Below, one piece after another: positions 19,243 to 20,038 of a stretch of 20,790 nt of DNA; the first letter of the stretch is position 1, and every line of letters begins with the position of its first letter. The notes under the pieces are model-generated. The model saw only the letters and a program-made list of their open reading frames with translations, was not told the DNA's origin and did not search any database. This DNA is from a virus. Lineage: Duplodnaviria; Heunggongvirae; Uroviricota; Caudoviricetes. The position numbers were made by a program, and so were the translations under genes. The stretch lies in the IMG/VR virus record IMGVR_UViG_2695420685_000016, positions 1-20,790 of that record; one strand, written 5' to 3'.

Positions 19243-19321
19243 ATCACCCTCACAATGTGAACTTTGAGTACACGCTATAACAGAACTGACAGTACATTCA
19301 AGAGCGAATATCATTGAACTT
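19243..19321. promoter_or_regulatory. Divergent promoter/operator region between cro-like and repressor genes (OR-like)
   Basis: 79-bp intergenic region containing AATGTGAAC, GAGTACAC and AGTACATT half-site-like motifs; the repressor ATG has no obvious Shine-Dalgarno sequence. Confidence 0.5.
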
Positions 19322-19741
19322 ATGGTTCATGAAGATAAAGCGCGTAAAGAGTTCGCCAGTAGGCTTGCGCTAGCCTGTGAAAACGCTGGTTATGAACAAC
19401 ATGGAAGGCAGGCAGAAATTGCCCGTCGAATGAAATTAACACCAAAAGCGGTTAGCAAATGGTTTAATGGCGAAACAATTCCTCGCCGGGAGAAATTAAG
19501 GGAATTAGCAACACTAATAGGAACAACACCAACCTATCTTTTGGGAGAGGATACAGAAGAAAGTGGACAGGTACGTTTCTATCAGGAGTTAAATCCAAGA
19601 CAAAAAATCATCATTGACCTTCTGGACGAGCTCCCTGACAGTGAGACAGATGAACTTTTAAAAACTCTTGAAGAGAAAAAACAGAAGTACAATGCAATTT
19701 ACGAAGAGTTAGCACGAAAGAAAAAACAAAAAGCCTCTTAA
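19322..19741 (+). CDS. CI/RacR-like prophage repressor (N-terminal HTH, C-terminal charged helix)
   Basis: HTH-like segment QAEIARRMKLTPKAVSKWFNGETIP; divergent from the cro-like gene; C-terminal EELARKKKQKAS coiled-coil-like tail. Confidence 0.65.
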   Translation: MVHEDKARKEFASRLALACENAGYEQHGRQAEIARRMKLTPKAVSKWFNGETIPRREKLRELATLIGTTPTYLLGEDTEESGQVRFYQELNPRQKIIIDLLDELPDSETDELLKTLEEKKQKYNAIYEELARKKKQKAS

Positions 19742-19814
19742 ACCAGCATAAATCCGGTAGCGCCTTCCTCCGGGTTTGTGCTTCACTTTATCCCATCTCA
19801 TTTTTTTACACACA

Positions 19815-19858
19815 AAATGTACTAAATGTACTTTACAACAATGAACACAAAGTACATT
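19815..19858. promoter_or_regulatory. Candidate OL-like operator: tandem AAATGTACT x2 plus inverted AGTACATT
   Basis: AAATGTACT at 19815-19823 and 19824-19832; reverse-complement half-site AGTACATT at 19851-19858; downstream of the repressor and upstream of plus-strand early genes. Confidence 0.45.
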
Positions 19859-20038
19859 ATATACCTGCCACCCACCCCGCCCCACAGAATGCAGGGCAAT
19901 ACTTCGAGTTACCAGGCAGTGGTCAGGGGTTAAGTAGCCAGCCCGAGGCGTAAGAACATGACGGCAGGGTTCAACTTTAATAACTATGCAGCAGGTTTTT
20001 GTTCCGCTACCCCAGCGTTAAGGGGAAATGAGGTCAGC

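Follow-up and report, generated by a model that had tools for sequence, protein, structure and literature searches.

In lambda, OR3 lies upstream of the start codon and covers the -10 and -35 elements of PRM, and a leadered establishment transcript coexists with a leaderless maintenance transcript. The lambda cI transcript is known to be leaderless (PMC3342100). In phage HK022, CI binds cooperatively at OR and OL (Carlson and Little, 1993, as summarised in PMC8053113), and both an extra CI operator 300 bp downstream of OR and an OL3 have been described (PMC8053113). The sites of the 933W repressor are 15-bp dyads, as defined by in vitro selection and footprinting; the K46A substitution abolishes specific binding by this repressor, and a model assigns DNA contacts to K42 (PMC3317979). 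In Escherichia coli K-12, DicA of the Qin prophage was bound in vivo at one of three operators predicted from sequence (PMC3441716), so predicted sites need not all be used.

Here we analyzed a 20,790-nt stretch of viral DNA (IMGVR_UViG_2695420685_000016; the window), which very probably carries a lambdoid E. coli prophage immunity switch of the HK022 type with five dyad operators, a 139-aa repressor, and a likely leaderless repressor start. In a close relative, the prophage adjoins ompW. The switch layout, the operator type, and a repressor start that lacks a Shine-Dalgarno (SD) sequence are already known from HK022, 933W, lambda, and Qin; the operator type is thus not new and no new mechanism is revealed. 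A literature search returned no paper on this element.

Results

The repeat unit around the repressor gene is a 17-bp dyad

A sequence-only reading of this DNA had described an 8-mer half-site, AATGTACT/AGTACATT, on both flanks of the repressor gene, with several copies between cro and the repressor gene and a tandem direct pair plus an inverted copy downstream. Near the repressor gene, exact copies are found at 19291-19298 (-), 19816-19823 (+), 19825-19832 (+), and 19851-19858 (-), and the remaining exact matches in the window are at 10166 (-) and 18568 (+). Six copies compare with 0.50 expected, four of them lie around the repressor gene, and six or more were reached in 0 of 100 shuffles. 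When one mismatch was allowed, 19 matches were found against 13.3 expected and the enrichment was gone, which argues that the 8-mer is not the true unit. We rejected it on this ground and on the loss of the second "direct" copy in relatives.

The true repeat unit is a 17-bp dyad with the core GWAC-N5-GTWC. This pattern occurs five times in the 20.8-kb window compared with 0.76 expected (pattern starts at 19259, 19283, 19316, 19819, and 19843) and is found nowhere outside the two regulatory stretches, and the five sites share the consensus ATGWAC-N5-GTWCAT. The claim of copies on both repressor flanks stands, but the unit itself had to be replaced. Only one exact 8-mer lies in the intergenic region, where several had been reported. 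The "tandem direct pair" (19816-19832) proved to be the two half-sites of one dyad operator, ATGTAC-TAAAT-GTACTT, which read as direct repeats because the GTAC core is self-complementary, and the "inverted copy" is part of a second operator, which has ATGAAC (19841-19846) as its other half.

We then scanned the window with a weight matrix trained only with operators of relatives (HK022, two Salmonella relatives, Klebsiella phage 2b, and an S24-type relative). The same five sites ranked 1 to 5 at 14.9-21.8 bits, compared with 9.0 for the next-best match in the window and 13.8 for the 95th percentile of shuffle maxima. A third OL site or a far operator was sought in the same scan, and nothing in the window rose above the shuffle level. 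The 10166 and 18568 copies were considered as extra operators (an analogue of the HK022 far-right site, or for moron gene regulation) and rejected, both being far below the five sites: 10165-10181 scores 4.5, and the 18568 copy has one good half only and falls outside the top 15 matrix matches (cut-off 3.9). DicA-type operators (TGTTAG-N6-CTAACA type) gave one match with two mismatches in the window; it falls in a tRNA gene, and a single such match is what chance would give. Conversely, GWAC-N5-GTWC does not occur in the K-12 Qin locus.

Operators and candidate promoters align with the HK022 immunity region

The coordinates of the features are collected in Table 1. HK022 site coordinates used for comparison come from pattern matching and a secondary description.

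Table 1. Features of the immunity region, in window coordinates.
Feature	Position	Strand	Details
cro-like gene, 84 aa	18988-19242	-	SD GAGGGTGAT before ATG; anti-SD energy -6.1 kcal/mol
OR1-equivalent, predicted operator	19257-19273		GTGAACTTTGAGTACAC; adjoins cro; strict GWAC-N5-GTWC match; matrix score 16.3
Candidate cro promoter (PR analogue)	19274-19301	-	-35 TTGAAT (19301-19296), 16-nt spacer, -10 TATAGC (19279-19274)
OR2-equivalent, predicted operator	19281-19297		CAGAACTGACAGTACAT; strict dyad match; score 15.6; includes the earlier-noted AGTACATT copy
Putative repressor maintenance promoter (PRM analogue)	19286-19314	+	CTGACA, 17-nt spacer, TATCAT; scan 10/12 matches
OR3-equivalent, predicted operator	19314-19330		TTGAACTTATGGTTCAT; centred on repressor ATG 19322; score 21.8, best in window
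Repressor gene, 139 aa	19322-19741	+	Pfam HTH_3 match
Hairpin after repressor stop codon, candidate repressor-transcript terminator	19745-19782	+	-20.9 kcal/mol; z -4.6
OL2-equivalent, predicted operator	19817-19833		ATGTACTAAATGTACTT; strict dyad match; score 15.4; earlier "tandem direct pair"
Putative early promoter for ydfABC and beyond (PL/dicBp analogue)	19832-19860	+	TTTACA, 17-nt spacer, CATTAT; scan 9/12 matches
OL1-equivalent, predicted operator	19841-19857		ATGAACACAAAGTACAT; strict dyad match; score 14.9; contains earlier "inverted copy"
ydfA, ydfB, ydfC	20039-20572	+	Pfam DUF1391; first genes of dicBF-type operon

The cro/repressor intergenic region is 79 bp long, and three dyads begin at 19257, 19281, and 19314. 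The OR1-equivalent shares its alignment column with HK022 GTGAACTTATGGTTCAT and with OR1 as annotated in phage 24B, and it would lie across the start region of the rightward-type (cro) promoter. The candidate for this promoter is colinear with HK022 TTGACT-16-CATAAT; its -10 element is a poor match with no T at the last position and is absent from the promoter scan output. Beginning 24 bp after OR1, as in HK022, the OR2-equivalent overlaps the -35 elements of both divergent promoters. Its centre lies ∼33 bp before the proposed start of maintenance transcription, and it may either activate or repress the maintenance promoter, whose -35 element it overlaps. HK022 has CTGATA-17-TATAGT at the columns of this PRM analogue. 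Over the repressor start codon, HK022 TTGAACTTATGGTTCAA covers the HK022 cI ATG and the annotated OR3 of 24B covers the 24B cI ATG. The third OR operator over the start codon had been missed in the sequence-only reading.

Downstream of the repressor gene, the OL pair flanks and covers TTTACA-17-CATTAT and is colinear with HK022 OL. The OL2-equivalent abuts the -35 element of this leftward-type promoter, and its HK022 counterpart at the same place is ATGTACTATTGGTACTT; the OL1-equivalent begins 24 bp after OL2, as in HK022, and covers the spacer and part of the -10 element. HK022 has TTTACA at the same columns as the -35 element, and dicBp of K-12 Qin sits at the same place, upstream of ydfA. 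The hairpin that follows the repressor stop codon keeps its stem with a changed loop in the 89%-identical relative L095; no canonical T-run stands immediately after it, and the terminator scan gave no match there. Past the window end, dicF and dicB are placed from identical or near-identical loci: RefSeq annotation of near-identical loci lists dicB, an exonuclease gene, xis, and int further downstream, and phage Tritos carries dicF and dicB downstream. The earlier proposal of an OR/OL pair is supported: both clusters align with the HK022 immunity region and with the annotated OR1-OR3 of record HM208303, and HK022 has homologues of Cro and of the repressor DNA-binding domain alike.

Operator positions are conserved among relatives

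The sequence-only reading had called for a motif search in related immunity regions, and sites were found in relatives, HK022 included. Deeper relatives were drawn from phage records and a protein search. The scan of genome contigs added no diversity because it yielded a single locus, in Shigella, and the relatives from the viral-contig scan were all 99-100% identical and served to follow within-lineage variation, not deep footprinting.

The start-to-start spacing of 24/33 bp at OR and 24 bp at OL is the same in HK022, Tritos, Klebsiella phage 2b, Salmonella ABTNLsp11242, a metagenomic relative at 89% identity, Salmonella relatives at 62-65%, and an S24-type relative at 72%; for 24B and SI8 the OR spacing is 24/32. 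The spacing is conserved although the repressors of the relatives share just 40-65% identity. The operators annotated in the 933W-immunity phage record HM208303 (OR1-OR3) fall in the same alignment columns as the sites described here. Across nine immunity regions, core positions carried 1.45 bits compared with 0.90 between operators (p = 0.001). Within the lineage, 78 of the 83 loci whose repressor is ≥99% identical kept all five sites. As variation in the OR stretch was too low, the within-lineage test was run on the OL stretch, where 2 of 16 core columns and 38 of 85 other columns varied (p = 0.013). Operator core positions are therefore under purifying selection. In the Salmonella relatives, a HigB/HigA-like insert lies between the repressor gene and the OL pair, which remains with the ydfA promoter. 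Of 5426 complete E. coli genomes, 1042 carry the 1.2-kb immunity segment at a coverage of at least 80%.

The repressor joins an HK022/933W-type domain to a DicA-like tail

The repressor consists of an HTH domain of the HK022/933W type (∼residues 1-75), a linker, and a DicA-like two-helix tail. Its N-terminal domain is 47% identical to HK022 CI over 99 aa (E = 6e-32), and the protein is 29% identical to K-12 DicA over 112 aa, including residues 88-137 (E = 5e-15). Its best PHROG match is phrog_5736 (residues 27-139), and the "CI repressor" of phage Tritos matches it at 100% identity. An AlphaFold2 model shows the C terminus as two helices; a fold search with this model returned generic HTH_3 matches only (TM ∼0.4). 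The recognition helix, TPKAVSKWFNG, is one residue off HK022 TPKAISKWFNG, and K42 and K46 are conserved. The cro-like protein is 60% identical to HK022 Cro (E = 1e-33), with matches to PHROG 35 and Pfam HTH_17.

No Pfam match to Peptidase_S24 (PF00717) was found in the repressor. Because the DicA-like helical tail replaces the RecA-sensitive S24 peptidase domain, induction probably follows a route other than autocleavage. A tblastn search of the window for a Rem-type antirepressor found none; the ORF at 14584-14856 beside hok, the position that corresponds to Rem, is unrelated. The pairwise cooperativity and looping demonstrated with full-length HK022 CI may also be beyond the short tail.

The repressor start lacks a ribosome-binding site

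As noted in the sequence-only reading, the ATG at 19322 has no SD sequence. In the 20 nt upstream, the anti-SD duplex energy is -1.9 kcal/mol, compared with -3.9 to -8.1 kcal/mol for six neighboring genes. An alternative start is not available in the frame, as a TGA at 19265-19267 is followed by no ATG, GTG, or TTG before 19322. The lack of a ribosome-binding site follows from the third operator, in the middle of which the repressor start codon sits. The SD-less repressor start is a family trait, and the neighboring genes carry SD sequences.

A -10-like TATCAT (19309-19314) ends 7 nt before A19322, and CTGACA precedes it by 17 nt, both being consensus matches. A -10 element at this distance would place the maintenance start at the AUG or 1 nt before it. 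The distance between the -10 match and the ATG is conserved among the aligned relatives. The 24B record puts the annotated pRM start 1 nt ahead of the cI ATG, and a supplement (PMC8053113) gives the label "PM-10" to the sequence immediately 5′ of the HK022 cI ATG. The missing SD, the position of TATCAT, and the layout shared with HK022 and 933W make a leaderless repressor transcript likely; the earlier suggestion of one is supported by inference from these features.

Discussion

We propose that a dimer of the 139-aa repressor would bind the five 17-bp dyads. From the three OR sites it would shut off the operon with cro, the cII-like gene (YdaT), and the replication genes and control its own promoter, and from the two OL sites, which flank the -35 and cover the -10 element, it would silence the promoter of the ydfABC-dicF-dicB-exo-xis-int operon. 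The Cro-like protein presumably acts on the same sites with the opposite order of preference. The maintenance transcript would begin at the AUG or 1 nt before it and so be leaderless, and at high concentration the repressor would occupy its own start site and repress itself.

Could the 8-mers themselves be 8-bp half-sites, arranged as a direct pair with a distant inverted copy and bound by a protein that recognises direct repeats or wide arms (10 bp, 14 bp apart)? Two exact AATGTACT copies 9 bp apart and a perfect 10-bp inverted repeat (AATGTACTTT/AAAGTACATT) would fit such a protein. However, the second copy is lost in phage Tritos (AAAAGTACT) despite an identical repressor, and also in L095 (GTGTACTTAAAGTACT) and HK022 (ATGTACTATTGGTACT), and GTAC-N5-GTAC is retained in all three. 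Together with the partner half of the right-hand site, ATGAAC, which is conserved everywhere, the three OR sites, which fit the 17-bp dyad model only, and the 15-bp dyad sites of the 933W repressor (PMC3317979), this makes half-site recognition very unlikely. Chance repeats in AT-rich intergenic DNA with no regulatory role would account for the exact 8-mers at 10166 and 18568, which have low matrix scores and no regulatory context, and for the lack of enrichment at one mismatch. They do not account for five full dyads (0.76 expected) confined to two short stretches, for an independent matrix that recovers the same five sites, or for spacing kept across repressors of 40-65% identity with constrained core positions, and chance is effectively refuted.

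A harder question is whether genuine operators could go with a repressor mRNA that has a leader. Expression would in that case come from a longer transcript, translated without an SD by another route; such a transcript could, for example, arise from an establishment promoter activated by the cII-like protein (YdaT) and running antisense through cro, or begin several nucleotides upstream. A PHROG 163 ("CII-like transcriptional activator") match of the gene downstream of cro makes an establishment promoter plausible; the leaderless start is placed by a consensus match, and in the K-12 dicA region no obvious dicA promoter is recognisable (PMC3441716). Against a longer transcript stand the conserved distance from -10 to ATG in the aligned relatives, the HK022 "PM-10" label, and the 24B pRM start 1 nt before the ATG. 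Moreover, leadered establishment and leaderless maintenance transcripts can coexist, as they do in lambda. On balance we regard an exclusively leadered repressor mRNA as unlikely, while giving it appreciably more weight than the two readings of the repeats above, and favor the leaderless maintenance transcript.

If the HK022-type switch is as proposed, it provides concrete predicted operator coordinates for a module that about one-fifth of complete E. coli genomes carry, as does the isolated phage Tritos, and that controls a dicBF-type operon encoding a cell-division inhibitor. The locus also shows independent exchange, among lambdoid phages, of HK022-type operator specificity and the induction/oligomerisation domain, of DicA or S24 type, and cross-immunity with HK022-like phages is a possible prediction. 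More tentatively, the locus may be a natural domain swap in which an HK022-specificity DNA-binding domain, Cro, and operators are combined with a DicA-type tail, giving many E. coli an SOS-insensitive and possibly HK022-cross-reactive immunity, with co-constraint of operator and coding sequence; we hold this possible but somewhat doubtful. If true, SOS-insensitive immunity would extend to a large share of E. coli, given the number of genomes with the segment, and this immunity could cross-react with HK022-type phages while keeping the toxic dicBF operon silent. The operator half-site GTWCA would also fix repressor residues 2-3 (Val-His/Gln) across the HK022/933W family, so that operator and coding sequence would constrain each other.

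Comparison with known switches

The Qin module (DicA/DicC/dicBp) has the same gene order (cro-like gene, short repressor, promoter, ydfA-ydfB-ydfC-dicF-dicB), a short peptidase-less repressor with a homologous C-terminal tail and an SD-less start, and operators at two places, the divergent intergenic region and the dicB-operon promoter. It differs in its operator, as the DicA Oc is TTGTTAGTCATAACTAACAA and no such sites occur in this window, in its DNA-binding domain, which is P22 C2-like in DicA and of the HK022/933W type here, and in Rem, the Qin antirepressor, of which the window holds no homologue. With lambda, the locus shares a repressor gene divergent from cro, a promoter embedded in a three-operator OR, and an SD-less repressor AUG at the predicted 5′ end. 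Unlike in lambda, the start codon marks the centre of the third operator, with OR2 overlapping the -35 element, and the proteins have no specific relationship beyond the HTH fold.

933W and 24B are related, with ∼51% identity over residues 1-73 of the N-terminal domain, shared K42 and K46, 15-bp dyads with a G-(A/T)-A-C core, OR3 over the cI ATG, and the annotated pRM start described above. Nevertheless, 933W has S41 in place of P41 and outer operator bases CGTAC compared with ATGWAC here, the OR2-OR3 spacing is 32 bp rather than 33, and these repressors are full length with an S24 domain; 933W is a more distant relative than HK022.

HK022 itself differs in its CI, which has 235 aa with an S24 peptidase/oligomerisation domain, whereas the repressor here has 139 aa with a DicA-like tail, and in its neighbors, cII and nun, compared with the YdaT/CII-like gene and ydfABC here. 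It also has a far operator and an OL3 with no above-background equivalent in the matrix scan of this window; GWAC-N5-GTWC also finds an HK022 site ∼290 bp beyond OR, which fits the extra CI operator described 300 bp downstream of OR. The two switches are nearly identical in operator sequence and spacing, and they share the same 17-bp dyads, for instance TTGAACTTATGGTTCA over the repressor ATG in both, the 24/33 and 24 bp spacing with colinear promoter elements, Cro at 60% and the CI DNA-binding domain at 47% identity, and recognition helices one residue apart.

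A 17-bp dyad flanks the repressor gene

The sequence-only reading proposed that copies of an 8-mer half-site on both sides of the repressor gene form an OR/OL pair. Against an expectation of 0.5, the window holds six copies of the 8-mer, AATGTACT, or its complement, a number that none of 100 shuffles reached. Four copies lie where the reading had placed them, at 19291-19298 (-), 19816-19823 (+), 19825-19832 (+), and 19851-19858 (-), and two other exact copies are found at 10166 and 18568. When one mismatch was allowed, the enrichment was gone (19 copies against 13.3 expected), which suggested a larger unit with the 8-mer as one portion of it. 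Repeat finding and inspection showed that this unit is a 17-bp imperfect dyad with the core GWAC-N5-GTWC. The 20.8 kb hold exactly five matches to this pattern, where 0.76 would be expected, and all of them fall in the repressor region (see the table). The supposed tandem direct pair downstream of the repressor is one operator, whose two half-sites read as direct repeats because GTAC is self-complementary, and the supposed inverted copy forms the right arm of another operator, whose left arm is ATGAAC. Two of the three OR sites had been overlooked, including the one over the repressor start codon. With the repeat unit thus corrected, the OR/OL interpretation is supported.

Features of the immunity region
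Feature	Position	Strand	Sequence or remark
YdaT-family gene	18566-18991	-	annotated 'toxin YdaT family'; PHROG 163 'CII-like transcriptional activator', E 7e-46
cro-like gene	18988-19242	-	84 aa; GAGG Shine-Dalgarno sequence
Putative cro promoter		-	TTGAAT-16-TATAGC
OR1-like site	19257-19273		GTGAACTTTGAGTACAC
OR2-like site	19281-19297		CAGAACTGACAGTACAT
Putative repressor promoter	19286-19314	+	CTGACA-17-TATCAT, 10/12 match; -10 ends 7 nt before A19322
OR3-like site	19314-19330		TTGAACTTATGGTTCAT; centred on repressor start codon
Repressor gene	19322-19741	+	139 aa; Pfam HTH_3
Hairpin 3' of repressor stop codon	19745-19782		-20.9 kcal/mol, z -4.6
OL2-like site	19817-19833		ATGTACTAAATGTACTT
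Putative ydfA-side promoter	19832-19860	+	TTTACA-17-CATTAT, 9/12 match; OL2 and OL1 either side
OL1-like site	19841-19857		ATGAACACAAAGTACAT
ydfA, ydfB, ydfC	20039-20572	+	gene calls

Since the pattern came from the window, a check of the sites independent of the window was required. A symmetrised weight matrix was built from 18 operators of relatives only (HK022, Salmonella phage ABTNLsp11242, Klebsiella phage 2b, a 65%-identical Salmonella prophage, and the locus of a 72%-identical S24-type repressor) and scanned over the window. The five sites ranked 1-5, at 21.8, 16.3, 15.6, 15.4, and 14.9 bits; the next-best match scored 9.0, and in shuffled windows the top score had a 95th percentile of 13.8. 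Of the stray AATGTACT copies, the one at 10166 scored 4.5 and the one at 18568 was outside the top 15, hence both look like chance. The former region (10165-10181) holds an exact AGTACATT inside a 7/8 core match (GTACATTTAGTCC), is located in degraded ORFs with the lysis region on one side and an IraM-like gene on the other, and is probably a chance match.

The sites are conserved among related immunity regions

A motif search across related immunity regions, the check that the reading had proposed, recovered the same architecture in nine further loci: the isolated phage Tritos, Klebsiella phage 2b, Salmonella phages ABTNLsp11242 and SI8, an 89%-identical metagenomic relative, two Salmonella prophages at 62-65% identity, and two loci that both encode one 72%-identical S24-type repressor. 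The Salmonella prophages carry a HigB/HigA-like pair between the repressor gene and the OL pair, and the OL pair still lies just upstream of ydfA, which implies that the OL sites belong to the ydfA promoter and not to the repressor 3' end. These HigB-toxin/HTH-antitoxin-like inserts (L092, 2053-2720; L093, 2088-2755) occupy the same position as rexAB in lambda. The S24-type relative shares all three OR sites; there (L097/L098, 946-1386) the gene upstream of OR is a Q-type antiterminator in place of a called cro, a layout that resembles immB of telomere phages.

When nine immunity regions were aligned on the repressor ATG, the information content was 1.45 bits for the operator core, 1.16 for other operator positions, and 0.90 for inter-operator DNA (Mann-Whitney p 0.001). 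Of 83 loci whose repressor is ≥99% identical, 78 keep all five strict sites at unchanged offsets. Within the 101-bp OL stretch, variable columns made up 2/16 of the core, 11/18 of the other operator positions, and 27/67 of the flank (Fisher p 0.013), and the central five operator bases vary freely. Tritos and the 89% relative have lost the second AATGTACT copy and retain GTAC-N5-GTAC. At 19273, the outer base of the OR1-like site, the window has C (GTACAC) and 78 of 83 close relatives have T (GTACAT), which is nearer the consensus.

The repressor start lies within the third operator

The repressor start had also been described as SD-less. Indeed, anti-SD pairing of the 20 nt upstream of ATG 19322 reaches only -1.9 kcal/mol, compared with -3.9 to -8.1 kcal/mol for six neighbour genes; for HK022 cI, 24B cI, SI8 cI, Klebsiella 2b cI, and K-12 dicA the energies are all near 0 kcal/mol. 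No alternative in-frame start was found between TGA 19265-19267 and 19322. Some related repressors (L087, 1489-2211; P0015; P0021; P0025) are called 4-15 N-terminal residues longer, from an in-frame ATG in the -10 region of the maintenance promoter. The window has ATC at that position, leaving ATG 19322 as the sole available start. With this ATG in the middle of the third operator and the -10 directly 5' of it, there is no room for a leader, which explains why the start has no SD. Taken together, these features make a leaderless maintenance transcript, as for lambda cI (PMC3342100), the most likely prediction. A side effect of this layout is that the right half-site GTWCA encodes repressor residues 2-3, Val-His or Val-Gln, which are conserved in HK022, 933W-type, and all relatives examined.

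HK022 has CTGATA-17-TATAGT and TTTACA in the same columns as the putative repressor and ydfA-side promoters. The stretch directly 5' of HK022 cI ATG is labelled 'PM-10' (PMC8053113 supplement), and the pRM start in the 24B record is annotated 1 nt before the cI ATG. The candidate cro promoter, placed by colinearity with HK022 TTGACT-16-CATAAT, has a weak -10 and was not reported by the promoter scan. The hairpin 3' of the repressor gene keeps its stem and changes its loop in the 89% relative; without an immediate T-run, its role as terminator of the repressor transcript is only a suggestion.

A hybrid repressor in a lambdoid prophage

The window is part of a lambdoid E. coli prophage. Strain 2014EL-1343-2 carries a near-identical copy beside ompW (98% identity over 99% of the window), with HK97-type head genes, lysis genes, a Q-type antiterminator, hokD, a replisome organiser, and the YdaT-family gene, followed by the cro-like gene, repressor, ydfA-ydfB-ydfC, dicB, exonuclease, xis, and int. 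The YdaT-family gene sits in the cII position 3' of cro and overlaps the cro stop codon. Of 5426 complete E. coli genomes, 1042 carry a 1.2-kb segment around the sites at ≥80% coverage; the segment is found as well in Shigella flexneri, at least 80 IMG/VR viral contigs, and Tritos, whose 'CI repressor' is 100% identical to that of the window. In 37 of 83 relatives, the limits of the conserved block containing the repressor lie near 18990 and near 20000, as expected for a lambdoid immunity cassette, and homology to K-12 picks up again just before ydfA. Rfam gathering-level matches in the window were sRNA STnc100, sok antitoxin RNA, and two tRNA genes (11045-11234, 15174-15349, 11934-12007, and 12112-12184, all -); the sok RNA adjoins a hok-like ORF (15024-15236), and the tRNA genes lie upstream of the Q-antiterminator region. 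A literature search turned up no paper dealing with this repressor or with Tritos.

The Cro-like protein and HK022 Cro share 60% identity (E 1e-33). By tblastn against phage records, the first 75-100 residues of the repressor resemble HK022 CI (47%), 933W-type CI (51% over 73 residues), and Klebsiella phage 2b (64%), among others. In the recognition helix, TPKAVSKWFNG, a single conservative change separates the repressor from HK022 (TPKAISKWFNG). Both K42 and K46 are retained; for the 933W repressor, K46A eliminates specific binding and a structural model gives K42 DNA contacts (PMC3317979). The C-terminal part (residues ~88-139) can be aligned to DicA from the Qin prophage of K-12 (29% over 112 residues, E 5e-15), and a Pfam domain search found no Peptidase_S24 in the repressor. 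In the AlphaFold2 model the tail forms two helices after a disordered linker (pLDDT ~90 for the HTH bundle, 72-89 for the tail). Relatives sharing the N-terminal domain have either a short DicA-like tail or a full S24 peptidase domain, which indicates that the window repressor is a natural hybrid of HK022-type specificity and a DicA-type tail. One E. coli protein, P0013 ('transcriptional regulator, partial'), is a chimera of a cro-like N-terminus and a repressor C-terminus fused at a shared G-E-T motif, perhaps through a rearrangement or an artefact of assembly in that single genome.

Proposed circuit and comparison with known immunity systems

In a lysogen, repressor dimers would occupy OR1/OR2, blocking the single operon of cro, the CII-like gene, and replication, and OL1/OL2, blocking the ydfABC-dicF-dicB-exo-xis-int operon. 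As its concentration rises, the repressor would also fill the third OR site, which covers its start codon, and curb its own production; upon derepression Cro would take the same sites. Since the repressor has no S24 domain, RecA-stimulated autocleavage is an unlikely induction route. In the case of DicA, published work demonstrates both an antirepressor (Rem) and a DicC-dependent bistable flip (PMC10448788); no Rem homologue was found in the window.

The K-12 dicC-dicA-ydfABC-dicF-dicB module has the same layout as the window but other operators, of the TGTTAG-N6-CTAACA type, which are absent from the window. In lambda, OR3 lies upstream of the cI start, whereas the window has the start at the midpoint of the third operator and the -35 overlapped by OR2. 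HK022 (AF069308) has GTGAACTTATGGTTCAT, CGGAACTGATAGTACAG, and TTGAACTTATGGTTCAA in the cro-cI interval, the last over the cI ATG, and ATGTACTATTGGTACTT and ATGAACTTTAAGTACAT downstream of cI. Its start-to-start spacings, 24 and 33 bp in OR and 24 bp in OL, are exactly those of the window. GWAC-N5-GTWC also finds an HK022 site ~290 bp beyond OR, consistent with a further CI operator, 300 bp downstream of OR, that PMC8053113 describes with reference to Carlson & Little 1993. In the 24B record with 933W-type immunity (HM208303), the annotated OR1, OR2, and OR3 fall in the same alignment columns, with OR3 over the cI ATG. Judged by these sequence comparisons, the element is an HK022-type operator/Cro/DNA-binding-domain set joined to a DicA-type tail, and the main products of the analysis are its exact operator coordinates and a predicted cross-reactivity with HK022-type immunity.
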